Assembly (NCBI GenBank): GCA_041601795.1
Contig: JBFIHK010000002.1
Location: 1-47,544 of the forward strand
Reading direction: 5' to 3'
Source: Minisyncoccia bacterium
GTDB taxonomy: Bacteria > Patescibacteriota > Minisyncoccia > Phycocordibacterales > XYD1-FULL-46-19
DNA length: 47,544 nucleotides
The notes under the pieces are model-generated. The model had not been told where the DNA came from. It made no database searches and worked only from the letters and a program-made list of their open reading frames with translations. Both the position numbers and the translations under genes were made by a program. Shown piece by piece: positions 16,259 through 34,542 of this stretch (position 1 is the stretch's first letter; every line of letters starts with the position of its first letter).

Positions 16259-19200
16259 TTATTTGTTTTGAGCTTGTTTAATAATGTTTAAGGCTTTACT
16301 CAGAGCACCTTCAAAAGTGTTTTCATTGAGTGAGTAGCTAAAGAAGCGAGCACTGTCTGTTTTCCAGCCGTCTTGGCTTAAGAGTCTACCAACAGAAACT
16401 TTTTTGGTGGCAAAGTCTATCATGAGTGAACCTTGGAAACCACCTATTTTATGTAAGGACAGTTTAGTGCCGTCTATTTTAACTTTAATATTATCGGGGA
16501 CAATATCTTTTCCTAAAAGGGCTTGCCACAGAGCTGGCCGGTCTGGGTTAACTAAAGCTTGAGCCAGTTTTAGTTCGCCGTCCGGAGTCCAATTTAAACT
16601 TCGAGTAATATCTAGAGCGGATAAAATAGCTTGAGGGTTATTGCTGTTTTCAACTAAATTGTTGAAAATCACTAATTGATTGGTATCTAAATTGCCTTTA
16701 GCGTCTGTTAAAAGAATAGACCTTTCTCCATTTAACAAATTAACTAAAACATCAAATTTGCTACCTGGTTTTATGTCACCATTTTCAGCTAAACCGGTAA
16801 TATTAAAATCTTTTTCATAATGAGAAATAGAGTTCGCCAGACCTTGGGGGAAGTTGTATTTTTCATGCAGAATAGAAGCGGTGTGGTTTAAGTTGGTATC
16901 TACTTCGGTCTTAATAGATTCTAGAGGTGTTTTTGCTTCCATTTGTTTTTCTAAGACAGAAATGTCTTTGGGGGTTCTTTCAGTGGGGGCTTCTGGAGAG
17001 ATTTGTGTTTCTTGATGATGAAAATTAGGCTCAATTACAGATTCTTTGCTTTCATATTTATCGGCTAGCATTTGTTGCCAAGTTCCTTCGCCGGTGGCTT
17101 GAGCGTATTTTATAATAGGTGAGTCTTGATCTATTTTTTCAGTAGCCCTGTCTAAGAGGGGTTTAAAAACATCGCGGTTAAATTTGTCATAATCGGAAAT
17201 AATTAATTGGCCGTCAGAAAATTTTACATATTCTCCAACTGTATTGGGATTAAGACCAGCAATAGCATGTTTATTGATTATAACTTCTCTAATATTAGCT
17301 AAAACATTTTCTAAGCGTGCGGCTTCCACTTTATCAAAAAATTCTGGTGTTTTATCGTCGTAAGCTTGCATGACTACTCGACGCAAGGTTTGGTCTAGAG
17401 TTTTAAAATCACCATTTTGACCGACTTCATAAACAACAGAAACCTTACCATAAGGATCGGTGATAACATTAGCCCCTGTGTTTTCAAATAGAGCCAAGCG
17501 CGAATAAGGTTTCCTGTTGATGTCTTCTAAGTTTATATCCGGGCGGTAGGGAATAGGGGGAATATCATCATTACTTTCTTGGTCGGTGATACTTTTAAAG
17601 ATATCACCAAGAGGGTTCGATTCTGCATCTTTTTCAGCTGAGTAACGTATAGGGCCTTCAGGTAGGATGTCAGGTTCTAAATCGTCGGGAGTGTTTTTAT
17701 CTTGTGTTAAAATACTTTCAAAATACTCGCTTTTGTCTAGAGCTAGGTTGTAAACATGGGTGGCAGCTTTGTATAAAGTGTCGGCCATCATGGCAAGCAC
17801 CACCCCTTTAGAAGCTGTTTCCACATTTTTGGCAGTCATCGCTAGAACATCAATAGTGCCGTAGCCACTGATCATACGTTCCATTTCTGTAAGCTTATTT
17901 TCATAAGAGGCAAATAACTTTTGCTTTTTAAGTTCTTTTTTAGAGCTTGCCAGTTTATCGTCGTTTTCAATTTTATTTAACTTTTTTTCTACTCGGCTTA
18001 ACCAAAATTTATTTTGCCATTGGGCTACTCCTTGAGACATACCAGCAAGCATTAAGCGAGCTTCGTCTAATTTGTTGATATTTTTTTTCTTACCCTTAGA
18101 AATACTACGAGCAACCCTTTGTAATCGTTGCCGGCTTTCTTTTAATTCATCATAGCTCCTCATTTTACGAGTTAGTGAACCGTAAAGAGTATTGTCTAAG
18201 TTGTTTGCTGTTTCTCTGGCTGTTTCTTGAATTGATATTTCTTCTTCAATTTCCTCGATAGTTTTTCCTTCTTTTTGACCTTTTTTTATAATAGCTTCTT
18301 TTTCATGCCATTTTAAGCTTGTATTTCTTTCTGCTTTTTTCCGAAGAACATCATCACCAGAAAGGCGAGCTTCTTTGGTTCCTCTGGATATTTCTTCTAC
18401 TCCACTGGCGATTAACATAACAGAGCGCAAAGGGGCTCCAGCTCCAACGTCGCTTAAGATGCGACTAATTTTAAGAGCGGTACCAATTGGCCGGCCAATG
18501 TTGCCAGCTGAAGTTAAAAAACCACCTTGTTTGTTTTGGGTATTGTTTATAATGTTTTCTACTTGTTCTGCTTTACCACGACGACCAGAGGCTAATCCAT
18601 GTAGAAATCTAGTTAAAGTATCTTGGTCGCGTAAATCTTGATTATTTTCATTAGGATTTTTAAATTTTGTGGCTGACTTTTCTAATATGTTAGCAATTTT
18701 TTCATTTTTCCATTTATCAATTCGATAACCTAAAGTATTTAAGCCGTATTTAACTTTTTCTTTTTTATCGTCGGGTAGAGATTCTATTTCTGCCATCACT
18801 TCTTCAGCTCTAGAGGCCACTTTTTCTATATTTTCTATTAAACCGTCAGAAGCTAAATTCTCTTTTATTTCTTTAATAGTTTCTGGAGGTAGAAGTTCTT
18901 TTTTACTGCCCTCGACTTCTATGTGGTCAGATAAATCTAAATTTTCTTTAAATGCAGGGTCAATATTTTTATCTAAATCAGCCTCGTTGAAAGGCGTTTC
19001 TGTATTTTCTTTGGCCGTTTTGTTCCTGGTCTCTAGGGTTTCTTTTATATCAGCAACAGCTTTTTTATAAGTAGGGGGGTAATCCGGATTGGGGTTGTTT
19101 TCTCTGTCGTAAGCCGCTTGCAAGATTTCTTTATTTGGAAGGTCTTTTGGTTGATTTCTATCTGTAGTATCAAATTTAGGCACTAAAGTATTGTCTTTTA

Positions 19201-19738
19201 GTCTATTTGTCTGATTGGTTATTAGTTTTGTTTCTTCGCCGGTCGAATCATTTTTTTGTCTAGTTTTTAAAATATCTTCCAAGGCTGTTTTGTAGGATTG
19301 GGGGTAAGATTTTCCAAGTTCATTTTTGGGGTCATTAGTTTCATTCGGAGAAGTAGCCTCAACATTTGGTTTTGAGGTATCAGAAGGTAGATCTGATTCT
19401 GAGTTTTCTAAAGGTGGAGTTTTGATTTCTGAAATGTTTTCTTGAAGTGTCTTTTTTGGGGCTTGAGTTTCTTCTTCGTGTTTTAATTTTTTATATAATG
19501 GTTCTAATTTGTCTGCTAAATTCACCCCAATTGTTTCTTCGGGAGTGTTTACTTGATTGTTAAAAGGAGTTCTTTCTTGAGGCGTTTCTTTTGTTTCAAG
19601 TTTTAAATTTATTTCTGTGTGGTCATTGAAATTTCGTTTCAATTCTTCCATCGTTTCTTGGTCTCTAAGGTCTGGTTTTCGGGTGATTCTAGAGCCTTCC
19701 TTAGGTTCATTTTTATTGAAAGAATATTCTTGATTCAT
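16259..19738 (-). CDS. Large orphan protein (1159 aa), charged low-complexity N-terminal third
   Basis: Long uninterrupted ORF. No signal peptide, TM segment or enzymatic motif recognised. Internal repeated motif YPxxYKxAxxDIxxT occurs twice. Confidence 0.75.
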   Translation of the reverse strand: MNQEYSFNKNEPKEGSRITRKPDLRDQETMEELKRNFNDHTEINLKLETKETPQERTPFNNQVNTPEETIGVNLADKLEPLYKKLKHEEETQAPKKTLQENISEIKTPPLENSESDLPSDTSKPNVEATSPNETNDPKNELGKSYPQSYKTALEDILKTRQKNDSTGEETKLITNQTNRLKDNTLVPKFDTTDRNQPKDLPNKEILQAAYDRENNPNPDYPPTYKKAVADIKETLETRNKTAKENTETPFNEADLDKNIDPAFKENLDLSDHIEVEGSKKELLPPETIKEIKENLASDGLIENIEKVASRAEEVMAEIESLPDDKKEKVKYGLNTLGYRIDKWKNEKIANILEKSATKFKNPNENNQDLRDQDTLTRFLHGLASGRRGKAEQVENIINNTQNKQGGFLTSAGNIGRPIGTALKISRILSDVGAGAPLRSVMLIASGVEEISRGTKEARLSGDDVLRKKAERNTSLKWHEKEAIIKKGQKEGKTIEEIEEEISIQETARETANNLDNTLYGSLTRKMRSYDELKESRQRLQRVARSISKGKKKNINKLDEARLMLAGMSQGVAQWQNKFWLSRVEKKLNKIENDDKLASSKKELKKQKLFASYENKLTEMERMISGYGTIDVLAMTAKNVETASKGVVLAMMADTLYKAATHVYNLALDKSEYFESILTQDKNTPDDLEPDILPEGPIRYSAEKDAESNPLGDIFKSITDQESNDDIPPIPYRPDINLEDINRKPYSRLALFENTGANVITDPYGKVSVVYEVGQNGDFKTLDQTLRRVVMQAYDDKTPEFFDKVEAARLENVLANIREVIINKHAIAGLNPNTVGEYVKFSDGQLIISDYDKFNRDVFKPLLDRATEKIDQDSPIIKYAQATGEGTWQQMLADKYESKESVIEPNFHHQETQISPEAPTERTPKDISVLEKQMEAKTPLESIKTEVDTNLNHTASILHEKYNFPQGLANSISHYEKDFNITGLAENGDIKPGSKFDVLVNLLNGERSILLTDAKGNLDTNQLVIFNNLVENSNNPQAILSALDITRSLNWTPDGELKLAQALVNPDRPALWQALLGKDIVPDNIKVKIDGTKLSLHKIGGFQGSLMIDFATKKVSVGRLLSQDGWKTDSARFFSYSLNENTFEGALSKALNIIKQAQNK

Positions 19739-21012: not shown

Positions 21013-22014
21013 ATGTTGACTACTGATGAAAAAAAGATAGGCCAAGAAATTTTGTTAGAAATAAAGCAAGCCAAAAGTATTTTATTACACTTGCATCCTA
21101 ACCCCGACCCCGATTCAATCGGTTCAGCTCTAGCTATGGCCGAAGCTTGTCAGAATTTGGGTAAAAAAGCCACCATTATAAGTGGTGACTCAGCTTTACC
21201 AAAGTCTCTTGTTTTTTTACCTGGATTTAATGATATTTTAGTTCAATCTTGGACAGATATAGATTTAACAACCTTTGATTTATTTATTGCTGGTGACAGT
21301 GGTTCACCCGAAATGGTAAGTAAGGAGGTAGATGTTACTCAAGTTGATAGTTTAAAAATAATAGTTATAGACCATCACGCTACGAATACTTTTTATGGAG
21401 ACATTAATTTTGTTATAGATGCTCCGGCTACAACTCAAGTTTTGTTTGAACTTTTTTCTTTGTGGGGAATAGAAATTTCTTCAACTATGGCTACTAATAT
21501 GTTTGTTGGGCTGTATGCTGATACGGGAGGTTTTAAATACGACTACACTCAACCAGAAACTTTTGCTATTGCAGGTAGGTTGATTGCTAAAAACCCAAAA
21601 GCTCTAAAGATGGTACGAATGATGCAAATGCAAAATACTCCTAAAAGTCTAGATTATAAAATGTTGGCTTATCAAAATATAAATATTTGTGCCAATGGTA
21701 GGGCTGCTGTGTCGGCTATGTCTTTTTCAGATTTGGAAGCTAAAAAAATAAAAACAGAAGATGTTGAAAGTGTGTCTTTGGGCAATGACTTATTATCTGT
21801 AGCTAAGTGGCAAGTTGTGGCTACTTTGGTTGAAAAAAGGCCAGGAGAAATAAAGTTAAGTTTACGATCTAAAGATGAAAATTTATATAATGTGGCTAAA
21901 GTGGCTCAAATTTTTGGTGGTGGTGGCCACAAAGCAGCCGCTGGGGCTAAACTAGAAACCACCTTAGAGGAAGCTTTAATTAAGGTTGTTTCAGCTATTG
22001 AGAATATTTTTTAA
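21013..22014 (+). CDS. nrnA: DHH-family phosphoesterase (NrnA-like oligoribonuclease/pAp phosphatase)
   Basis: HPNPDPDSIGS, DHH (VIDHHATN) and DHHA1 GGGHKAAAG motifs. Confidence 0.85.
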   Translation: MLTTDEKKIGQEILLEIKQAKSILLHLHPNPDPDSIGSALAMAEACQNLGKKATIISGDSALPKSLVFLPGFNDILVQSWTDIDLTTFDLFIAGDSGSPEMVSKEVDVTQVDSLKIIVIDHHATNTFYGDINFVIDAPATTQVLFELFSLWGIEISSTMATNMFVGLYADTGGFKYDYTQPETFAIAGRLIAKNPKALKMVRMMQMQNTPKSLDYKMLAYQNINICANGRAAVSAMSFSDLEAKKIKTEDVESVSLGNDLLSVAKWQVVATLVEKRPGEIKLSLRSKDENLYNVAKVAQIFGGGGHKAAAGAKLETTLEEALIKVVSAIENIF

Positions 22015-24120: not shown

Positions 24121-24786
24121 ATGTCTGATAATGGAGAACTGAAAAGCAAAATTAGAAGACTTAGTGTTGAAGCTTCTAATGCAAGCTCTTTGTCTTTTGA
24201 GGATCGTTACATCCAAGATTTGGAGGAAGCTAAAACAATAGTTGAAGCCATTCGTGTAGGAGGGTGTCGAATTGTGCTTACTTCAGGAACCTTTGATTTG
24301 GTGCATATAGGGCATGCTCGGTATGTATCTGAAGCTAAGAGAAGCGGCGATTTTTTGGTTGTTGGTGTCGACGATGACAAGAAAGCTAGAGGTCGCAAGG
24401 GCGAAAATAGACCCGTAGTGCCTGAGCTGGAAAGAGTCGAGATGTTGACTCATTTGCGTTGGGTGGACCTGGTTGTCCTCAAACGGCATGACGAGGAAAA
24501 ATGGGGTCTAATTAAACTGTTAGTCCCCGATGTTTTAATTATCGTTGAGGGGACTTATAAGCAGGAAGAAATCGATCAATTGGAGCGGTTTGTAGGTGAA
24601 GTCGTAGTTCTACCTCGTCAGGCGGATACAAGTACTAGTGCCAACGTCAGAAAAATGATGCTTGGCGGAGCGGATGATATGGTTAGACGCATTTTAGAAA
24701 TCTTACCTGTTAAACTGGCTGAACTGTTGAATGAACATGTTTCAAGTATTGTTCGTTCTACGTACGACGCCATGAAAAAGGATTGA
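24121..24786 (+). CDS. Cytidylyltransferase-superfamily nucleotidyltransferase, RfaE domain II / TagD-like
   Basis: IVLTSGTFDLVHIGHARYVSEAK...LVVGVDDD...RPVVPELERVEML...STSANVRKM parallels the HldE C-terminal adenylyltransferase (HxGH and ISSTxxR-like motifs). Confidence 0.75.
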   Translation: MSDNGELKSKIRRLSVEASNASSLSFEDRYIQDLEEAKTIVEAIRVGGCRIVLTSGTFDLVHIGHARYVSEAKRSGDFLVVGVDDDKKARGRKGENRPVVPELERVEMLTHLRWVDLVVLKRHDEEKWGLIKLLVPDVLIIVEGTYKQEEIDQLERFVGEVVVLPRQADTSTSANVRKMMLGGADDMVRRILEILPVKLAELLNEHVSSIVRSTYDAMKKD

Positions 24787-24790
24787 CCCC

Positions 24791-25642
24791 ATGACGAAAA
24801 AAAGAGTGGTTGTAGTGTATGTGCCAGTGATTCATCAAGGGTACATTAATTTTATTCGAAGTATGGAGGATAAAATAGAAGAAGTCTTACTTTTAGGGTC
24901 AGAAATCATAAGCATTTTCGACCATTTGGCTCGAAAAGATCTTAGAGCTATTGATCCGTTTTTGGCTCTTTTGACTCTGAAAGAATGTGGTTTTTCTATT
25001 CCAATTAGTTTGTGTACAAAGTCTACTCTACTTAGCATTGCCAACAATAAGATGGTGCAAGTAATAATGCCCGACGAACATGAGTGTCGTGAGGTGGCGA
25101 AAATGTTTGCGTTAACTGATGTTGAGTATGAAAAAGTTTTTCTGCGTTGGCATCAAGGTAACATTTTGGCTCAAAACAAAGTGATACCAGATGAGAAAAT
25201 TGCTATAGACGATTTTAATCAACAAATGATGATGTCAGTGGCTAAAATTCAATCCGAAAAAAGTCTTGATTGGTGGCGTCAGGTGGGTGCTGTATTGGTT
25301 CGAGGCGAAGAGATTGTTTTGAGTACATACAACCAACACGTACCAGATGAACGTATTCCGTATGTTGTGGGTGATCCTAGGGCGTGTTTCAAGAAAGGAT
25401 TAACTATAGAACTGTCGACAGCGGTGCATGCTGAAGCCGGATTAATTGCCGAAGCAGCTAGACGAGGAATATGTACAGAAGGGTGCTCTCTCTACGTCAC
25501 TACATTTCCTTGTCCTCCTTGTGCAAAGTTGGTAGCCTATTCTGGTGTTAAAAAAGTTTACTTCCAGGATGGTTATTCAATGCTTGATGGTGAAAACATT
25601 CTTCGTCATCAGGGTGTGGAAATAGTACAAGTTTTGAGCTGA
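24791..25642 (+). CDS. dCMP deaminase (ComEB-type) with about 150-aa N-terminal extension
   Basis: C-terminal HAEAGLI...TTFPCPPCAKL zinc-binding deaminase motifs. The N-terminal VVVVYVPVIHQGYINFI resembles a degenerate HxGH nucleotidyltransferase start. Confidence 0.8.
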   Translation: MTKKRVVVVYVPVIHQGYINFIRSMEDKIEEVLLLGSEIISIFDHLARKDLRAIDPFLALLTLKECGFSIPISLCTKSTLLSIANNKMVQVIMPDEHECREVAKMFALTDVEYEKVFLRWHQGNILAQNKVIPDEKIAIDDFNQQMMMSVAKIQSEKSLDWWRQVGAVLVRGEEIVLSTYNQHVPDERIPYVVGDPRACFKKGLTIELSTAVHAEAGLIAEAARRGICTEGCSLYVTTFPCPPCAKLVAYSGVKKVYFQDGYSMLDGENILRHQGVEIVQVLS

Positions 25643-25665
25643 CCCTTTTAGGGTCAGCTTTTTTT
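25638..25665 (+). terminator. Intrinsic terminator
   Basis: gctgaccc-tttta-gggtcagc followed by T7. Confidence 0.85.
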
Positions 25666-25666
25666 A

Positions 25667-25697
25667 TATAAAAACCCGGTAACTTGCGTTACCGGGG
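25667..25697 (-). terminator. Intrinsic terminator for the convergent folA-HIT/thyA unit
   Basis: cccggtaac-ttgc-gttaccggg. A T-run follows on the minus strand. Confidence 0.8.
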
Positions 25698-25724
25698 TCT
25701 TAAGGTTCTGCCTTATTTTATCCT

Positions 25725-26684
25725 TCAACCAAAACCCAATTTAACCTTGATGGGTTGACCTTCTCCATCTTCGTTTTGACCAGACAGTAAGTGAAAATGT
25801 AGGTGGGCAACAGTAGCGCCTGTTTGCTTCATATTACCAGAGCGACAAAACAATGAGTACCCAGTAAGACTATGGTCAGTGACCAATTTTTTTATTATTG
25901 ATCCTAGGTCTAACCATTCTATTTGGGAAATTTGTGTCAAATCTGTCAGGTGTCTTTTAGGTATAACAAGTAGATGGATACTGGTGCCTTTGTAGGGCCA
26001 ACCGTTATTAACTACTTGCCAGTTAGTATTTTGGGTCACAATTCCACCAGTGTGAAATCGAGGTAAATATTGAGGGCAAAACGAACAAATCCCTTTACTG
26101 GAAATAATCAACATTTTTACTAATTGATCCAGATGGCGAGCACTGTTTAGGTAAAAGGTTTCTGGTGGAGGATGGTCTTCTCGATCCCAGACTTCTAAGT
26201 TGAAATCGTGCTCATTCTTTACATCTTTAGGATGAGAAAGAGATGCTGTTTTGTGCCAAGGTGTAGTTAAGGCGACCATTTCTGGTATAAAAGTATCGCC
26301 ATTGGCTATTATGGTTTGAACCGAGGTTTTGATAATTCGACTAGCTTGAGGTAAGGCTAAGCGAAAAATATCGGCTCCTCCAATGACAAAAACATATTTG
26401 TTCGTTGTTGACTCTAAGGCTTGGTTCCATGAATTAACTACGGTAACTTGGTTGCCGTAGTTTAAACTACTTTCTCTGGTGATGACGATATTTTGTCTTT
26501 CTGGTAAAGGTCTGAATTGGGGTGGTAAGGAATTGTAAGTCTTACGTCCCATAATTACTGATTGACCTATTGTGAGTTTACGAAAGATTTCCATGTCTGC
26601 TGCTAATCGCCAAGGTATTTGGCCTTTTTTACCAATACAACCTTTAAGATCGCAAGCGACAATGAGGGTAATGAGTTTTTCCAT
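25725..26684 (-). CDS. folA: Fusion protein: dihydrofolate reductase + HIT (histidine triad) domain
   Basis: N-terminal LIVACDLKGCIGKKGQIPW...VIMGRKTYNSLP...VIGGADIF is DHFR. C-terminal CSFCP...HLLVIPKRH...HLHFHLL is a HIT domain. Confidence 0.85.
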   Translation of the reverse strand: MEKLITLIVACDLKGCIGKKGQIPWRLAADMEIFRKLTIGQSVIMGRKTYNSLPPQFRPLPERQNIVITRESSLNYGNQVTVVNSWNQALESTTNKYVFVIGGADIFRLALPQASRIIKTSVQTIIANGDTFIPEMVALTTPWHKTASLSHPKDVKNEHDFNLEVWDREDHPPPETFYLNSARHLDQLVKMLIISSKGICSFCPQYLPRFHTGGIVTQNTNWQVVNNGWPYKGTSIHLLVIPKRHLTDLTQISQIEWLDLGSIIKKLVTDHSLTGYSLFCRSGNMKQTGATVAHLHFHLLSGQNEDGEGQPIKVKLGFG

Positions 26685-26695
26685 AATCCTTCCCT

Positions 26696-27610
26696 TTAGA
26701 TGGCTACCGGAATATTTTTAATACCCGGATGCGGATAGTAGTCGGATAGAGTGAAATGTTCCCGTCTGAAATCGAACAAGTTATTGATGTCTTGATCGAG
26801 GGTCATGGTGGGAAACAGACGAGGTTTACGTTTTAAGATTGTTTCCACTGCTGGTATTTGCTTCACATAAATGTGAGCATCTGAAAAGCTGTGGCAATAA
26901 TAACCCGGGGTATAACCAAGTACTTGAGCCAAAGCCATAGTCAGGGCAGCATACTGGACAATATTAGAAGGAACTCCTATTGGTACGTCGGCGCTGCGTT
27001 GAAACATGTGTAAATCTAAACGTCCATTTATGATCCTAATATGGACCCATCCATGACAGGGGGCTACCACTACTTGCTGAACTTTTCCTGGTCTGCGAGC
27101 GATACCGTAGGGTATCCACGGGGTAACAAAATGTGTTCTCAATTGAGGATTAATCCTAATTTCGCTAATCAGGTCCTCAAATTGATTAAAGGGACCGTCC
27201 TTACTTGGAAAATCATGGAAGGCTCCCCCGTAAGAACAGGGACCGTTACTACCAGGGGGCAGATTACGTTTCTGACATTTTTTGTCAGTCAACCAGTATT
27301 TCCACCATAGACAGCCGAATTTTTCCAGCTCTTCTAGAGTGGTGGCTCCATTAATAAAAGCCAGTATTTCACCGATGGCTTGCTGCCAAATAGTGATTGG
27401 TAATTTCTCACTCGTTGCTGGGTTCAAGTTGCGCTCGGTTAACATGGGAAAACCATTTTGCAGGTTGTAGCGCAAGTTAATCGGGGGAGCAAAGAGGGTT
27501 AAAGCATATTCGTCTTGCTGGACATACACTTTTTCTCCTTTATCCAAGATAAGCCGAAGTAAATTTTGGTACTGTTCGTCGGGGGTCCTTTCTTCATATG
27601 GATTCATCAT
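26696..27610 (-). CDS. thyA: Thymidylate synthase (ThyA family), divergent N-terminal half
   Basis: APCHGW (catalytic Cys), FQRSADVPIGVPSNIVQYA (Asn retained), SDAHIY, and C-terminal YYPHPGIKNIPVAI almost identical to E. coli ThyA. Confidence 0.85.
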   Translation of the reverse strand: MMNPYEERTPDEQYQNLLRLILDKGEKVYVQQDEYALTLFAPPINLRYNLQNGFPMLTERNLNPATSEKLPITIWQQAIGEILAFINGATTLEELEKFGCLWWKYWLTDKKCQKRNLPPGSNGPCSYGGAFHDFPSKDGPFNQFEDLISEIRINPQLRTHFVTPWIPYGIARRPGKVQQVVVAPCHGWVHIRIINGRLDLHMFQRSADVPIGVPSNIVQYAALTMALAQVLGYTPGYYCHSFSDAHIYVKQIPAVETILKRKPRLFPTMTLDQDINNLFDFRREHFTLSDYYPHPGIKNIPVAI

Positions 27611-27716
27611 TATCTTACCTTTCTTTAGGGTTGAAGGGTTGGTTTTTATTTATTGTTAAGGTGTCTGGTTAAACTTCTAGCATAAAATAATAGTTTGTGC
27701 GAGTATAAGAAGTAAT

Positions 27717-28880
27717 ATGAAAGACAAACAAATAGAAAGTTTAATAAAAGATGAAAAAAAGCGTCAGCAGAAGGGGATAAATCTAATAGCATCGGAAAAC
27801 TATGTTTCAGATGATGTGTTAAAGGCTTTAGGTTCAGAACTAGTCAATAAATATGCCGAAGGTTACCCAGAAGCCCGTTATTATGGTGGTAATAGTGTGG
27901 TCGATAAAATAGAGAAGTTGTGTCAGAAAAGAGCTTTGAAGGCTTTTAAATTGTCTGAAAAAGATTGGAGTGTGAATGTGCAACCCCTGTCTGGTTCGCC
28001 GGCTAACCTTGCTGTTTATACCGCTTTAGTGCCTCAAGGGGGAAAAATTATGGGCCTTGATTTAGTCGATGGGGGGCATTTAACTCATGGCTATAAAGTT
28101 TCAGTAACTGGTAAGTTTTGGACTCAAGTGGCCTATGGAGTAGATCCAGAGACAGAAGTTTTAGATTATGAAGAGATAAAAAAAATTGCTCACCAAGAAA
28201 AACCAGCTCTGATTGTGGCTGGATTCACAGCTTATCCGCGAAAAATAGATTGGCAGAAATTTAGAGCTATCGCAGATAGCAGTGGAGCAATTTTAATGGT
28301 GGATATGTCGCATGTGGCAGGACTTATAGCAGGTGGAGTTTATCCCACGCCTTTCTCTTATGCTGATGTAGTGACCACCACAGTTCATAAAACCTTACGG
28401 GGTCCTAGGGCAGCGATGATTTTTTCCCGTCTTGAGTATGCTCAAAAAATAGACAAAGCTGTTTTCCCAGGTTTACAAGGTGGGCCTCATGTAAATCAAA
28501 TAGCTGCTACTGCTGTGGCTTTAGAAGAAACAATGGCGCCAGAGTTTAAAATTTATGTGGAGCAGGTGATTAGAAACGCCAATGTTCTAGCTGAAGAATT
28601 AACTAAACTTGGCTGGCGGCTGGTAACAGGTGGCACTGACTCGCATTTAATTTTAGTTGATACTTGGCTGAACGGGCAAGGTATTTCCGGCGGAGAAGCA
28701 AGTAAAAAGTTAGAACAAGCTGGTATTATTGTAAATAAAAATACTATTCCGGGGGACAAAAGAAGTCCCACTGATCCATCGGGTATTCGTTTAGGGGTGG
28801 CCGCCGAAACTACTAGAGGTAAAAAAGAAGTTGATATGGTATCTATTGCGGGGGAAATAGATCAGATTTTACGCTCTTAA
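27717..28880 (+). CDS. glyA: Serine hydroxymethyltransferase
   Basis: INLIASENY, SGSPANLAVY and the PLP-lysine motif TTTVHKTLRGPR. Confidence 0.95.
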   Translation: MKDKQIESLIKDEKKRQQKGINLIASENYVSDDVLKALGSELVNKYAEGYPEARYYGGNSVVDKIEKLCQKRALKAFKLSEKDWSVNVQPLSGSPANLAVYTALVPQGGKIMGLDLVDGGHLTHGYKVSVTGKFWTQVAYGVDPETEVLDYEEIKKIAHQEKPALIVAGFTAYPRKIDWQKFRAIADSSGAILMVDMSHVAGLIAGGVYPTPFSYADVVTTTVHKTLRGPRAAMIFSRLEYAQKIDKAVFPGLQGGPHVNQIAATAVALEETMAPEFKIYVEQVIRNANVLAEELTKLGWRLVTGGTDSHLILVDTWLNGQGISGGEASKKLEQAGIIVNKNTIPGDKRSPTDPSGIRLGVAAETTRGKKEVDMVSIAGEIDQILRS

Positions 28881-28881
28881 T

Positions 28882-29304
28882 ATGATTCTTAAAATAAAAA
28901 AATTAAATTCTTTGGCTAAAGTTCCACATTATGCACATTCAACTGATGCTGGGCTTGATTTATGTACGGTCGAAAAAAAGGTGGTGCCGGCCGGTGGGCG
29001 AGCCTCTATTTCTACAGGGCTCGCTTTTGAAATTCCAGATGGTTTTGTGGGCTTAGTATGGGATAAAAGTGGTTTAGCTTTTAAACAAGGGTTAACCTCA
29101 CTGTCGGGAGTCCTTGATTCTGGCTACCGAGGGGAACTTTTATTGTGCTTATTTAATACTACAACAGAAGATTATGTTTTTAATGTTGGTGATAAAGTCG
29201 CTCAATTATTAATTCAGCCAGTGGTTCAGGTGAAAATAGAAGAGGTTGTCACACTGACTGATTCAAGCCGAGAAGAAGGTGGTTTTGGTTCAACGGGTAA
29301 GTAA
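28882..29304 (+). CDS. dut: dUTP diphosphatase
   Basis: DAGLDL, VLDSGYRGEL and C-terminal GGFGSTG motifs. Confidence 0.92.
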   Translation: MILKIKKLNSLAKVPHYAHSTDAGLDLCTVEKKVVPAGGRASISTGLAFEIPDGFVGLVWDKSGLAFKQGLTSLSGVLDSGYRGELLLCLFNTTTEDYVFNVGDKVAQLLIQPVVQVKIEEVVTLTDSSREEGGFGSTGK

Positions 29305-31092: not shown

Positions 31093-34000
31093 ATGACAGA
31101 CAACAAAAATTCATCAAACAATAAAAGTGATTTGGCTAAAAACGAGGAAGAGGTGCTAAAGTTTTGGACAACTAACAAAATTTTTGAGCAATCCATGGCT
31201 AAGGAGTCTACTGGTGGTGATTTTGTTTTTTACGAAGGCCCACCAACCGCTAATGCTAAACCCGCTCTACACCACTTAGAAGCTAGAGCTTTTAAGGATG
31301 TTATTCCTCGTTATAAAACTATGAGAGGTTTCAAAGTAAGAAGAAAAGCCGGTTGGGATACTCACGGTCTACCAGTAGAACTTCAAGTTGAAAAAGCTTT
31401 AGGTTTAAAATCAAAAAAAGAAATAGAGGCTTATGGGATAGAAAAATTCAATCAACAGTGTCGGGCTGACGTGTGGAAGTTTTTGAACCTGTGGAGCGAT
31501 TTTACAAATAGAATAGGTTATTGGTTGGATCGTACTGACGAATATATTACATATAACAATTCTTATATTGAATCGGTGTGGAATATTTTAAAGACCACTA
31601 ACGACAAAGAATTGCTTTATAAGGATTATAAAGTTGTGCCCTGGTGTCCACGCTGTGGAACTGGGTTATCTAGTCATGAACTCGCTCAAGGCTATGCTGA
31701 AATTAAAGACTTATCTGTTTATGTAAAGTTTAAAATCGCAGGTCAAGACAATACTTATTTACTAGCTTGGACTACTACCCCTTGGACTTTGCCAGGCAAT
31801 GTGGCCTTAGCAGTGGGTAAGAATATAGCTTATGTTGAAATAGAGTTGGATAATAAAGACAGATTAATTTTAGCTAAGAGTAGATTAGAGGACGTTTTGG
31901 GGGAAAATAAATACACCGTGGAAAGAGAAATGAAGGGGAGCGATTTGGTAGGTCAAAATTATGAGCCTGCTTACTCTTATTTAACTGATAAATTTAAAGC
32001 TAAGGATGAAACAGCTTTTGCTAAAAGTTTTAAAGTCTATACAGCTGATTTTGTTACCACCGAAGATGGAACTGGTATTGTTCATACAGCAGTCATGTAT
32101 GGACAAGACGACTTTGAATTGGGTACCAAAGAAGGTTTACCCAAATTCCATTTAGTAAATGAAGACGGAACTTTTATTGAAGGTTGTGATTTTTTGTCAG
32201 GCAAATTTGTTCGCAGTGAAGAAGTGGCTATAGATATTATAAAAGATTTAGCTCATCGGGGTTTGTTGTTTAAAAAAGAAAAATACGCTCACACTTATCC
32301 GCATTGTTGGCGTTGTAAAACTCCTCTTATTTATTATGCTCGCGACTCTTGGTATATCAGAATGTCGAAGCTTAGAGATCAATTGGTGGCTGGTAATGAA
32401 AAAATTAACTGGGAACCAAGTCATATTAAGGAAGGCCGATTTGGTGAATGGTTGCGTGAGGTAAAAGATTGGGCTATTTCTCGTGAACGTTACTGGGGGA
32501 CTCCACTACCTATTTGGCAAGACGCTCAAGGTCAAATCACTGTTATTGGAAGCATAGATGAATTAAAACAAAAAACTAAAAAATCTGGTAATAGTTATAC
32601 TGTTATGCGCCACGGGCAGGCAGAAAACAATGTTAAAAATATAGTTAATTCCGATAACTCTACTCCAGTTTCTTTAACTGAAGTAGGTAAAGAACAAGTT
32701 GGGGCTCAAATAAAAAATTTACAAACTAAAAAAATAGATTTAATTTTTACTTCACCCCTTAAAAGAACAAAAGACACAGCCGATATGGTAGCGACCGCTT
32801 TAGGGGTGTCAGAAGTGGTTACAGATGATAGGTTGCAAGAAATAAATACGGGTGAATTTAGTGGACGTCCTGTGGCCGATTATCATAATTTTTTTGACAA
32901 GCCTGAAGATTATTTTTCTAAAACTCCAGCCGGAGGCGAAAATTTATTGGATGTTAAAAAAAGAGTAGGGGATTTTATTTATGAATTAGAACAAAAATAT
33001 CAAAATAAAAATATTTTAATCATTGGCCATGAATATCCTTTGTGGATGTTATTTGGAGTGGAGGTTGGGGCTGATGTTAAAAAATTAATTAATATGAAGG
33101 AGGATGAATTTATTCAAAATGCCGAAATTAGAGATTTAGATTTTGCACCTCTACCTCATAATGATATTTATGAACTTGATTTGCATAGGCCATATATAGA
33201 TCAGGTGGAAATTTTAAATGAACAAGGCGAAACTTTGACTAGAGTAAAAGAGGTGGCTGATGTGTGGCTTGATTCTGGCGCTATGCCGTTTGCTCAGGAC
33301 AATTATCCTTTTTCCATTTCTGACGAAGAGCTTTTGTATCCGGCTGATTTTATTTCAGAAGCCATCGATCAAACTCGGGGTTGGTTTTATACTCTGCATG
33401 CGGTGGGGATTTTAATGAGTAAAGGGCCGGCTTATAAAAATGTTATTTGTCTGGGACATATTTTAGATGCCGAAGGTAAAAAAATGTCTAAGTCTATTGG
33501 TAATATCATAGAACCTGATTTACTAATCAATAAATATGGTGTTGATGCCCTCCGTTTATGGATGTATTCAGTTAATCAACCAGGAGACTCTAAAAATTTT
33601 GATGAAAAAACCGTTGATGAAATAGTTAAAAAAGTCTTTAACTTATTAAATAATGTTTATGCTTTTTATGATCTTTATCAAGATAAATCTGTTTTGCCTC
33701 ATGCGGGTAATACCAACGTTCTTGATGTGTGGATCATCAACCGGTTAAACGAACTCCTTTCTAAGGGTACTTCTTATTTGGATGATTATAAAATCTTTGA
33801 AGCTAGTCGATTGATTCGTGATTTTGTAAATGATTTTTCTACTTGGTATGTCAGGCGATCGCGTGATCGGTTTAAAGAAGAGGGGACAGATAAAAAAGAA
33901 GCTTTAGCTACGACCAGATTTGTTTTATTGGAGCTAGCTAAATACATGGCTCCGTTCACACCATTTTTTGCTGAGAATTTATATTTAAAATTAAAACAAG

Positions 34001-34542
34001 AAGGTGGTCCTTCTAGCGTTCATTTGTCTGATTGGGCGACCGTTTCTACTCCTGACGAAAAGGTGCTTAATTTAATGGCTCAAACTAGAGAATTAGTGTC
34101 AGTGGGGTTAGAAAAAAGAGCTTCAAGTGGAGTTAAGGTTCGACAAGTTTTGGCTAGTATGAGTATTAATATAGAATTACCTGTTGAATATTTAGCTTTA
34201 ATTAGAGATGAAATCAATGTGAAAGAGGTGACAGTAAAAAAAGATCAAAAAGAGATGGTGGTGCTTGATTTTAATCTTACTCCCGAATTACAACAAGAAG
34301 GTTATGCTAGAGAGTTGATTCGTTTTATCCAAAACTTACGCAAAACCAAGAATTTGTTGCCAGCCGATAAAATTAAATTAAATATTAAAACAGCCTCAGA
34401 CGGGCAGGACCTAATTGATAAATTTAATGATGAAATAAAAAAAGCCGTCGGAGCTACTACTATTTTTGTTACACCTTTAGAATTAAAGGGAGAAAAAATA
34501 TCAGTAGATGGTATGGATTTTATTATCGCTTTAGAATTATAA
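31093..34542 (+). CDS. ileS: Isoleucine--tRNA ligase (type 2) with an inserted histidine-phosphatase (PGAM-like) domain
   Basis: PPTANAKPALHH, editing-domain TTTPWTLPGN, WAISRERYWGTPLPIW and KMSKS. About 200 aa between WGTPLPIW... and DLHRPYID carry RHGQAENN, SPLKRTKDTA and IIGHE motifs. Confidence 0.9.
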   Translation: MTDNKNSSNNKSDLAKNEEEVLKFWTTNKIFEQSMAKESTGGDFVFYEGPPTANAKPALHHLEARAFKDVIPRYKTMRGFKVRRKAGWDTHGLPVELQVEKALGLKSKKEIEAYGIEKFNQQCRADVWKFLNLWSDFTNRIGYWLDRTDEYITYNNSYIESVWNILKTTNDKELLYKDYKVVPWCPRCGTGLSSHELAQGYAEIKDLSVYVKFKIAGQDNTYLLAWTTTPWTLPGNVALAVGKNIAYVEIELDNKDRLILAKSRLEDVLGENKYTVEREMKGSDLVGQNYEPAYSYLTDKFKAKDETAFAKSFKVYTADFVTTEDGTGIVHTAVMYGQDDFELGTKEGLPKFHLVNEDGTFIEGCDFLSGKFVRSEEVAIDIIKDLAHRGLLFKKEKYAHTYPHCWRCKTPLIYYARDSWYIRMSKLRDQLVAGNEKINWEPSHIKEGRFGEWLREVKDWAISRERYWGTPLPIWQDAQGQITVIGSIDELKQKTKKSGNSYTVMRHGQAENNVKNIVNSDNSTPVSLTEVGKEQVGAQIKNLQTKKIDLIFTSPLKRTKDTADMVATALGVSEVVTDDRLQEINTGEFSGRPVADYHNFFDKPEDYFSKTPAGGENLLDVKKRVGDFIYELEQKYQNKNILIIGHEYPLWMLFGVEVGADVKKLINMKEDEFIQNAEIRDLDFAPLPHNDIYELDLHRPYIDQVEILNEQGETLTRVKEVADVWLDSGAMPFAQDNYPFSISDEELLYPADFISEAIDQTRGWFYTLHAVGILMSKGPAYKNVICLGHILDAEGKKMSKSIGNIIEPDLLINKYGVDALRLWMYSVNQPGDSKNFDEKTVDEIVKKVFNLLNNVYAFYDLYQDKSVLPHAGNTNVLDVWIINRLNELLSKGTSYLDDYKIFEASRLIRDFVNDFSTWYVRRSRDRFKEEGTDKKEALATTRFVLLELAKYMAPFTPFFAENLYLKLKQEGGPSSVHLSDWATVSTPDEKVLNLMAQTRELVSVGLEKRASSGVKVRQVLASMSINIELPVEYLALIRDEINVKEVTVKKDQKEMVVLDFNLTPELQQEGYARELIRFIQNLRKTKNLLPADKIKLNIKTASDGQDLIDKFNDEIKKAVGATTIFVTPLELKGEKISVDGMDFIIALEL

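Follow-up and report, generated by a model that had tools for sequence, protein, structure and literature searches.

A dihydrofolate reductase-histidine triad fusion protein and its five-gene thymidylate module in Patescibacteria

We analysed a stretch of 47,544 nucleotides (hereafter the window) from a Minisyncoccia bacterium (contig JBFIHK010000002.1 of assembly GCA_041601795.1, positions 1 to 47,544), in which one open reading frame (ORF) encodes a dihydrofolate reductase (DHFR) joined to a histidine triad (HIT) domain. The DHFR-HIT ORF is a genuine fusion in one continuous frame, and both of its halves are very probably active. The fusion is a recurrent variant of an adjacent folA-hit gene pair, and the HIT subfamily in question is a constant component of a thymidylate module of five genes in some Patescibacteria. 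As a whole, the explanation that we tentatively prefer, held at somewhat less than even confidence, is a bifunctional enzyme in which DHFR is combined with a HIT enzyme that would release a deoxynucleoside monophosphate (dNMP) within this module. An earlier note made on the same DNA had recognized the gene and the fusion; it gave no strand, which is minus, and it missed the membership of the HIT half in the module. The parts of the protein are listed below.

25725 to 26684, minus strand: whole DHFR-HIT ORF, ATG start, 319 amino acids (aa) plus stop, with DHFR_1 and HIT both above the Pfam cut-off.
26181 to 26684, minus strand: DHFR domain, residues 1-168, from the DHFR_1 profile, the fold and invariant residues.
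26139 to 26180, minus strand: linker, residues 169-182 including HPPPE, the least conserved part between the domains; in split loci the DHFR stop and HIT start fall here.
25728 to 26138, minus strand: HIT module, residues 183-319, with an N-terminal helix, CxFC, HxLxIPKxH and RxG...TGATVxHLHFH, from a HIT-only model, structural matches and invariant residues.
26076 to 26087, minus strand: CSFC (C200-C203), with invariant C, F and C, probable zinc ligands together with H245 and H294.
25785 to 25805, minus strand: histidine triad HLHFHLL, residues 294-300 (H294, H296, H298), read from the sequence, with H294 and H296 invariant.

The earlier note had described a single continuous ORF, not an annotation merger, with a Pro-rich linker after the DHFR domain. 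The Pro-rich stretch HPPPE is present at residues 173-177, and independent assemblies contain an equivalent fused frame with its linker at 87, 68, and 67% identity (P0002-P0004). Further fused frames are more distant, at ∼33-41% identity (P0005-P0007 at 36-37%). The HIT half is as conserved in the orthologues as the DHFR half (89, 68, and 68% vs. 86, 68, and 67% identity). Since the fused frame is kept in other genomes, including two Saccharibacteria metagenome-assembled genomes (MAGs), it is no frameshift artefact. A sequencing or assembly frameshift that joined folA and hit would require little: split pairs with overlapping frames occupy 10 of 16 loci from the phylum, so that one base change could join them, and read depth in the window is only ∼8 in the sole run found, its probable source. 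However, a contig produced by a second assembler from that run, and for this reason not independent of the window, had 0 differences over positions 25600-27700 and showed no stop or frameshift across the linker. The identical sequence excludes an assembler-specific slip, and with the fused frame also found in the other 6 phylum loci and in 4 named MAGs we consider the probability of an artefact negligible.

The first ∼168 residues had been taken for a normal DHFR, and profile, fold and key residues agree with this. Pfam DHFR_1 matched residues 5-168 with an E value of 8.1e-46 and 156.1 bits (cut-off 25), covering profile positions 2-159 of 159, and the motifs IGKKGQIPW (17-25), VIMGRKTYNSLP (43-54), and VIGGADIF (100-107) were confirmed. 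Residues P24, W25, D30, F34, G46-R47-K48-T49, G102-G103, and T120 are invariant across 7 fusions; we take the catalytic and cofactor residues to correspond to those of the E. coli enzyme (D30 to D27 and so on). An AlphaFold model of the whole protein reached a predicted local distance difference test (pLDDT) score of 74.8 with a shallow 7-sequence alignment. In a Foldseek search this model matched solved DHFRs (8f09, 4gh8, 7dfr, and others) with E values of 1e-18 to 1e-15 and template modelling (TM) scores, normalized to the target, of 0.87-0.90. The DHFR half is thus predicted, from sequence and model, to be an ordinary NADPH-dependent dihydrofolate reductase. Nothing marks it as a resistance variant: none of the NCBIfam models of trimethoprim-resistant Dfr proteins reached its cut-off (the best, DfrA3, scored 89.6 bits vs. 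350), and the similarity seen in NCBIfam was that of a generic DHFR. Other folA genes of the Candidate Phyla Radiation are reported to complement an E. coli ΔfolA strain (PMC11974145). Among the DHFR homologues of 300-350 aa we also observed proteins with a 2TM domain (PF13239), namely P0014, P0015, P0017, P0019, P0023, P0029, P0030, and P0032, apparently a different, membrane-anchored DHFR architecture.

The C-terminal part is a HIT domain, as the earlier note had claimed. Pfam HIT matched residues 235-304 with an E value of 1.6e-9 and 38.7 bits (cut-off 21.5; 40.6 bits for the domain alone), DcpS_C also exceeded its cut-off (29.1 bits vs. 24), GalP_UDP_tr_C stayed below (16.3 bits vs. 29.2), and CSFCP (200-204), HLLVIPKRH (237-245), and HLHFHLL (294-300) were all confirmed. 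The profile searches and AlphaFold prediction that the note had proposed confirmed both domains and both folds, and turned up other fusions. The HIT-only AlphaFold model (residues 173-319, 52 subfamily sequences) reached a pLDDT of 95.8 and a predicted TM score of 0.90, and matched solved HIT proteins in Foldseek with an E value of ∼1e-6. An all-against-all structural search with the same model gave the following Z values.

3r6f, zinc-containing HIT protein: Z 12.3.
4zgl, HIT-like protein: Z 12.0.
3imi, HIT family protein: Z 11.5.
6yi0, Hint2: Z 11.1.
3ano, diadenosine tetraphosphate (Ap4A) phosphorylase Rv2613c: Z 10.7.
7p8p, Fhit: Z 9.6.

Because the best structural matches, 3r6f and 3o0m, are zinc-containing HIT proteins, the CSFC cysteines are probable zinc ligands. 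Among the 52 subfamily members (full-protein numbering), C200, C203, H245, H294, and H296 are invariant, F202, W222, N227, P230, Y231, H237, R281, and G283 are conserved in at least 90%, and either H or Q occupies the third position of the triad. The invariance of the triad speaks for catalysis, which would proceed via a covalent His296-nucleotide. In profile alignment the residues before the triad read R...GA(T/S)V, compared with N...GQ(S/T)V in Hint-type proteins, and the subfamily has in addition an N-terminal helix (consensus NARxxxQxxxM) and a C-terminal tail. We suggest that the extra positive charge of R in place of N would suit a polyphosphate leaving group.

Placing the HIT part within the superfamily was attempted with curated models and with solved proteins. 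None of the NCBIfam HIT models came near its cut-off. For the Hint branch, PRK10687 scored 12.8 bits (cut-off 206) and Mycoplasma HinT 20.3 bits (cut-off 130), and the Hint signature N...GQ(S/T)V is altered, with R281 and A in place of N and Q. The GalT branch is characterized by a tandem repeat, whereas the window protein has a single HIT domain and galT_1 scored 18.7 bits (cut-off 102.1). The ATP adenylyltransferase model scored 16.2 bits (cut-off 290), and 3ano and Fhit lie within about 2 Z units of the best Hint-like matches. The best profile match to any solved protein had an E value of 3.6e-11. With no sequence or fold match that places it, the HIT part is assigned to the HIT superfamily outside any characterised branch. 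We concluded from sequence and model that it is probably a catalytically intact, zinc-containing, single-domain HIT enzyme of a distinct subfamily.

We then asked how widespread the fusion is. With the HIT part as sole query, a full HMMER scan of 1.84 billion representatives found 735 proteins at E ≤ 1e-3, of which 317 reached E ≤ 1e-10. Among the 150 listed, 26 are 259-547 aa long with a C-terminal HIT domain, and the others are stand-alone proteins of ∼120-195 aa. Thirty long forms were checked by profile (the window protein, the 26 long matches, and P0005-P0007), and 29 of them carry DHFR_1; the exception, P0159, matched no family. The fusion reported earlier is therefore real and not unique. 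One further long form, P0232, has a partial DHFR plus an unexplained C-terminal extension. A search of named genomes with the fusion alignment returned mostly plain DHFRs and four full-length fusions, from two 'Candidatus Saccharibacteria' MAGs, one 'Patescibacteria group bacterium', and one unclassified MAG. One NCBI record of a fused protein is named just 'HIT domain-containing protein', a name that hides the DHFR half, so folate and thymidylate capacity can be mis-scored. Among the homologues, one NCBI record bears the label Dehalococcoidia.

The HIT part was searched against 401 genomes of the phylum, and the 16 best non-self places, from 15 genomes, were retrieved. DHFR and HIT share one frame in 6 of these 16 loci and are separate genes in 10; with the four named MAGs, fused and separate arrangements are equal in number (10 each) among 20 other loci examined. 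The 10 split loci comprise seven with the order thyA-folA-hit, one with folA-thyA-hit, and two with thyA-hit. In split pairs the reading frames overlap, which means that a small change could fuse folA and hit. Loss of the stop that separated these adjacent, overlapping genes is the most likely origin of the fusion. Fused forms are scattered over the HIT tree: in a FastTree phylogeny of 160 HIT domains the fused state required 24 changes vs. 29.4 for shuffled labels (minimum 25), in a tree that is poorly resolved (19 of 157 branches starred) and cannot count fusion events. Two genomes showed additional variation. Locus L025 (genome G386, contig C13) has two tandem HIT-subfamily genes downstream of folA, and genome G349 has two copies of the module on short contigs (C28 and C54), one copy fused and the other split, possibly a mixture of strains.

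The neighbourhood of the DHFR-HIT gene contains the following genes and elements.

24121 to 24786, plus strand: cytidylyltransferase-like nucleotidyltransferase, CTP_transf_like E 1.3e-17, with HIGH and RxxxTSTS motifs.
24791 to 25642, plus strand: dCMP-deaminase-family protein with a 140-aa N-terminal domain, convergent with DHFR-HIT, dCMP_cyt_deam_1 at residues 145-258 (dCMP, deoxycytidine monophosphate).
25636 to 25696, no strand assigned: two facing terminator-like hairpins between the convergent deaminase and DHFR-HIT genes.
26696 to 27610, minus strand: divergent thymidylate synthase (ThyA*), immediately upstream of DHFR-HIT and within its operon, Thymidylat_synt E 2.4e-56, 191 bits.
27717 to 29304, plus strand: glyA (serine hydroxymethyltransferase, SHMT) and dut, divergent from thyA, SHMT E 7e-159, dUTPase E 1.6e-27.

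The thyA stop is followed after 11 nucleotides (nt) by the DHFR-HIT start, with a GGAAGG-type ribosome-binding sequence ahead of it. A search for sequencing runs that contain this DNA listed none of RNA. On the deaminase side, the plus-strand hairpin (25636-25660) has 11 pairs and a T run; the DHFR-HIT gene ends at the minus-strand hairpin (25696-25675), which has 9 pairs and a T run. The genes glyA and dut are the remaining thymidylate-cycle enzymes beside the module. A DHH/DHHA1 phosphoesterase (NrnA-like) at 21013-22014 on the plus strand lies a few kb from the module and is likely to act in nucleotide scavenging.

We defined the module as a HIT-subfamily gene that adjoins a ThyA* lacking R21, accompanied within about 2 kb by both the transferase and the N-terminal-domain deaminase. 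The window contains all five genes, at 24121-27610. Both an adjacent ThyA and a deaminase gene like that of the window were found in 16 of 16 phylum loci. The cytidylyltransferase-like gene was found in 13 of them, the other three loci being truncated by a contig end within the deaminase gene. The whole module is present in all four named-MAG fusion loci. The cluster often lies between rplK and rplA. At canonical-ThyA loci of the same phylum DHFR is directly beside ThyA in 8 of 11 cases, and the HIT gene, the transferase, and this deaminase were absent from all 11 loci examined. One of these, L040, from the window's order, shares the glyA-dut-argS synteny without the module partners, and L055 shares it with the module.

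This distribution bears on whether the HIT half is a generic housekeeping protein, that is a Hint-type phosphoramidase or ApnA hydrolase that entered a thyA-folA operon by chance. Hint-type proteins are its best sequence and fold matches, and HIT proteins, present in 14 of 14 control genomes, are almost universal. However, ThyA* and the unique deaminase were co-located with it in 20 of 20 other loci, and the subfamily stands beside ThyA* in just 16 of the 401 sampled genomes. The N-terminal domain of the deaminase was detected by profile search in 15 of the 401, all of them HIT-module genomes; in the sixteenth module genome the module sits on a cut-off 2-kb contig and the domain was not recovered. 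The window genome already has a second, generic HIT gene elsewhere (123 aa), and the differences from Hint at the N...GQ positions, with scores far below the NCBIfam Hint cut-offs, point the same way. We consider a housekeeping role unlikely. That the HIT half is a dedicated member of the module acting on a nucleotide of the route from deoxycytidine to deoxythymidine (dC to dT) is, by comparison, likely.

The HIT half could also serve mainly as a dimerisation or scaffold module that renders DHFR bivalent and docks it to the ThyA* dimer, with catalysis secondary, which may be likened to a non-covalent version of the DHFR-thymidylate synthase (TS) of protozoa. HIT proteins occur as obligate dimers, translational coupling or fusion links the genes, and in two split loci (L021 and L022) hit directly follows thyA. 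A pure scaffold would have no need of the nucleophilic His and the full active-site set, which are invariant in the 52 members, and HIT is a separate protein in the 10 split loci. A prediction of the ThyA*-HIT complex scored 0.00 in a run without controls and weighs neither way. We regard the scaffold role as improbable.

The ThyA proteins of the module are divergent, with Pfam scores of 173-279 bits vs. 290-430 for canonical ThyAs of the phylum. The phosphate-binding Arg of the DRTGTGT loop is missing in 16 of 16 HIT-linked ThyAs with data and kept in 10 of 11 canonical ones. The RR pair reads RT in 9 of the 16, the window's included, and is kept as RR in 5. R166 and the leading Arg of RR are retained in most members, and ThyA* also keeps the catalytic PCH, QRS(A/G)D (QRSAD in the window), Asn (replaced by Asp in a single member), and Glu. 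The subclass to which the window's ThyA* belongs has a conserved K-C-x-K-R-G-L insert after the WxxW motif. The lost, altered and retained ThyA* residues presumably correspond to E. coli R21, R126/R127, C146, N177, and E58.

The nearest solved proteins to the deaminase are the dCMP deaminases 4p9c and 1vq2, both from phages. Its N-terminal domain (24791-25216, plus strand) has conserved YIPVLHxGY, DIRA, and FLRWD motifs that are also found in L015-L029. It had no match in Pfam at E ≤ 10 and none in the PDB at E ≤ 10 with a 13-sequence profile, no similarity to the transferase in BLASTP, and scores of at most 0.83 in a feature-based search, which are leads only. The transferase scored 108 bits against rfaE_dom_II (below the cut-off of 181), and its nearest solved protein is the ethanolamine-phosphate cytidylyltransferase 3elb.

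We considered whether transferase, deaminase, and HIT might form an anti-phage nucleotide-depletion system and not a biosynthetic one. The best NCBIfam and PADLOC matches of the deaminase are anti-phage dCTP deaminase models, and the HIT half weakly matches ThsC in PADLOC. These matches are limited to a zinc core of ∼60 residues or to the generic HIT core and fall far short of the cut-off (70 vs. 400 bits), and the genes lie between ribosomal-protein genes, in an operon with thyA-folA, in many families, which leaves the depletion system extremely unlikely. A phage origin of the HIT gene was likewise rejected: 7 of 50,697 phage records matched, each partially (46-48% of the query) and in the generic HIT core only, and in PHROGs there were only weak matches to HIT families of unknown function.

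To see how module genomes obtain deoxyuridine monophosphate (dUMP), we compared their nucleotide-supply genes with those of canonical-ThyA genomes. A search for genes of the dUTPase superfamily (Dut or Dcd-like) detected one in 8 of 16 module genomes, compared with 29 of the first 32 canonical-ThyA genomes (Fisher p 0.003, with relatives that are not independent). True Dut is present in 7 of 16 module genomes; in canonical-ThyA genomes it is often right beside ThyA. This scarcity suggests that the module is an alternative route to dUMP based on dCMP deaminase, and an enzyme producing dCMP or dUMP from some activated precursor could be required for it.

In the explanation that we tentatively prefer, the DHFR half would recycle the dihydrofolate from ThyA*, encoded 11 nt upstream, and the fusion would fix a 1:1 ratio and the co-location of both activities. 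His296 would attack the alpha-phosphate of a 5'-activated pyrimidine deoxynucleotide; candidate substrates are the triphosphates dCTP and dUTP, a (d)NDP-X, or a dinucleotide that the nucleotidyltransferase of the module produces. This would yield a covalent His-dNMP, to be released as dCMP or dUMP, which the deaminase and ThyA* would convert to thymidine monophosphate (dTMP), so that the HIT half would feed or drain the dC-to-dT route. We infer from the strict genomic context that the nucleotide belongs to this route. In other pathways that modify deoxynucleotides the substrate comes from an NTP pyrophosphatase: Dut serves ThyA, T4 gp56 serves dCMP hydroxymethylase, and MazZ serves PurZ.

Several observations weigh against this explanation. 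The HIT substrate is deduced from genomic context, and the sequence and fold matches fit no characterised HIT branch; to our knowledge HIT enzymes are not established as dNTP pyrophosphatases. In the window genome the supplier role looks redundant with Dut next door, and since no ribonucleotide reductase (RNR) was found there, dCMP would come from salvage and not from dCTP. A MazG-like pyrophosphatase is present in 10 of the 16 module genomes, which weakens the argument from dUTPase scarcity, and Dut, MazG, and dimeric dUTPase are all missing in only 3 of 16 (G248, G030, and G351). The fusion partner is merely the adjacent gene, so fusion by itself is no proof that DHFR and HIT are coupled. 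Finally, the simple model would leave the linked transferase, the N-terminal domain of the deaminase, and the altered phosphate site of ThyA idle. For these reasons we rate the specific role of the HIT half as a supplier of dNMP as possible and rather doubtful.

Every module member would receive a task if the pathway ran on tagged intermediates. Here the transferase, which retains its HxGH and RxxxTSTS motifs, would put a nucleotidyl or phospho-alcohol handle on the 5'-phosphate of dCMP (App-dC or dCDP-X), the deaminase (via its N-terminal domain) and ThyA* would act on tagged dC, dU, and dT, and the HIT enzyme would strip the handle or pass dTMP to phosphate or pyrophosphate, so that dU would never enter the free nucleotide pool. 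The loss of the phosphate-binding Arg in all HIT-linked ThyAs, RT in place of RR, the K-C-x-K-R-G-L insert, and the lack of any Dut or Dcd in half of the module genomes would fit such a pathway. Nucleotidyltransferase and HIT pairs that make and break the same NMP-phosphate bond also recur elsewhere (GalU/GalT, ligase/aprataxin, VTC1/VTC2). The proposal is purely inferential, however, and we know of no tagged-nucleotide pathway of this kind. Free dUMP may still fit most ThyA* proteins, which keep R166 and the leading Arg of RR, and both the five HIT-linked ThyAs with an intact RR and the seven module genomes with a true Dut speak against it. We judge the tagged pathway unlikely; quite unlikely, too, is its strict form, in which the whole module works on 5'-tagged deoxynucleotides, free dUMP and dUTP are never formed, and Dut is dispensable.

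The window genome (563,632 bases, 98.4% complete) gave no match to thymidylate kinase (Tmk), RNR (class I/II or III), MazG, or ThyX, and it nevertheless keeps a full cluster for dTMP synthesis. A link of the module to loss of RNR was rejected, as RNR was found in 15 of 16 module genomes. Tmk was found in 300 of the 401 genomes overall: 10 of 16 with the module, 98 of 123 with canonical ThyA, 35 of 48 with other TS-like proteins, and 157 of 213 without ThyA (G154, with canonical ThyA and no module, is within the 401-genome tallies and was left out of the 123). The missing Tmk in the window genome and in five other module genomes would be accounted for if the HIT enzyme and the transferase acted on the product side, turning dTMP or a conjugate into dTDP or dTTP and so bypassing the kinase. 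The difference between module and canonical genomes is not significant, however (p 0.20), which rejects a Tmk bypass as a general explanation, and Tmk lies inside the cluster at several module loci. A product-side role is very unlikely. As a separate observation, a Tmk domain opens frames of 737-791 aa in G218, G305, G063, G318, and G344, which suggests a fusion with an unidentified large partner.

The DHFR-HIT protein invites comparison with several known systems. DHFR-TS of protozoa and plants also joins DHFR covalently to a thymidylate-cycle enzyme with a stoichiometry fixed by fusion, but the partner there is TS, whereas here HIT is at the DHFR C-terminus and ThyA is a separate upstream gene; one DHFR-TS protein (P0081) was among the DHFR homologues of the window protein. 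NitFhit of worms and flies (1ems, Z 9.5) is likewise a HIT protein fused to a metabolic enzyme, with separate, functionally linked proteins elsewhere. It differs in partner and lineage, and the window HIT is not placed in the Fhit branch by any curated model. Phage T4 encodes a deoxynucleotide set (td, frd, cd, and the gene 56 dCTPase-dUTPase) built on the same principle, in which thymidylate synthase, DHFR, and dCMP deaminase go with an enzyme converting dNTP to dNMP, but the putative dNMP supplier here is a HIT protein and not one of the dUTPase or MazG fold. None of the three joins DHFR to HIT.

Zinc HIT and Hint proteins (3r6f, 4zgl, 3imi, and Hint1/2) have CxxC, HxLVIPKxH, and HxHxH in common with the window HIT, with Z values of 11-12.3 and root-mean-square deviations of 2.0-2.7 over 99-112 residues. 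The window HIT is 23-28% identical to them and differs in its N-terminal helix (NARxxxQ), its C-terminal tail, its strict genomic context, the R and A that replace N and Q of Hint, and a third triad position that may be Q. Rv2613c (3ano) and GalT-type HIT proteins resemble the subfamily in the N-x-x-P-Y motif and in H or Q at the third triad position; we likened this alternation to transferase-type HIT proteins on the assumption that the GalT motif is HxHxQ. They differ in that the window HIT is a single domain and not a tandem, scoring 16 bits against the adenylyltransferase model (cut-off 290) and 18.7 against galT (cut-off 102).

The earlier note knew of no described DHFR-HIT fusion, and our search agrees: no description of the fusion or of a HIT-thymidylate module was found in full-text literature, with supplements and subscription journals outside the search. 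Thymidylate synthesis (ThyA, DHFR, SHMT, and dCMP deaminase or Dut) is among the best-known pathways and a classic drug target, so a strictly linked further enzyme is unexpected. Patescibacteria, including Saccharibacteria, live as episymbionts, with minimal genomes and a dependence on nucleotide scavenging, and the fact that five linked genes are kept in a genome of 0.56 Mb points to an important function. What is new, and gives the finding a significance beyond the fusion itself, is a HIT subfamily, not described before, that is tied to a distinct thymidylate module of Patescibacteria. The HIT substrate would reveal either a new supply of dUMP or dCMP or a new pathway of protected nucleotides. 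PMC11974145 contains neither 'histidine triad' nor 'fused', and the passages of PMC12455944 on the subject mention just a horizontally acquired thyA.

Two other large ORFs of the window were noted. The ORF at 16259-19738 on the minus strand encodes 1159 aa with no Pfam family at E ≤ 1e-5. The ORF at 31093-34542 on the plus strand encodes a class I aminoacyl-tRNA synthetase of 1149 aa (tRNA-synt_1, Anticodon_1, and DUF5915) that carries a phosphoglycerate-mutase-like His_Phos_1 domain in mid-protein, at residues 504-669 (E 3e-31).

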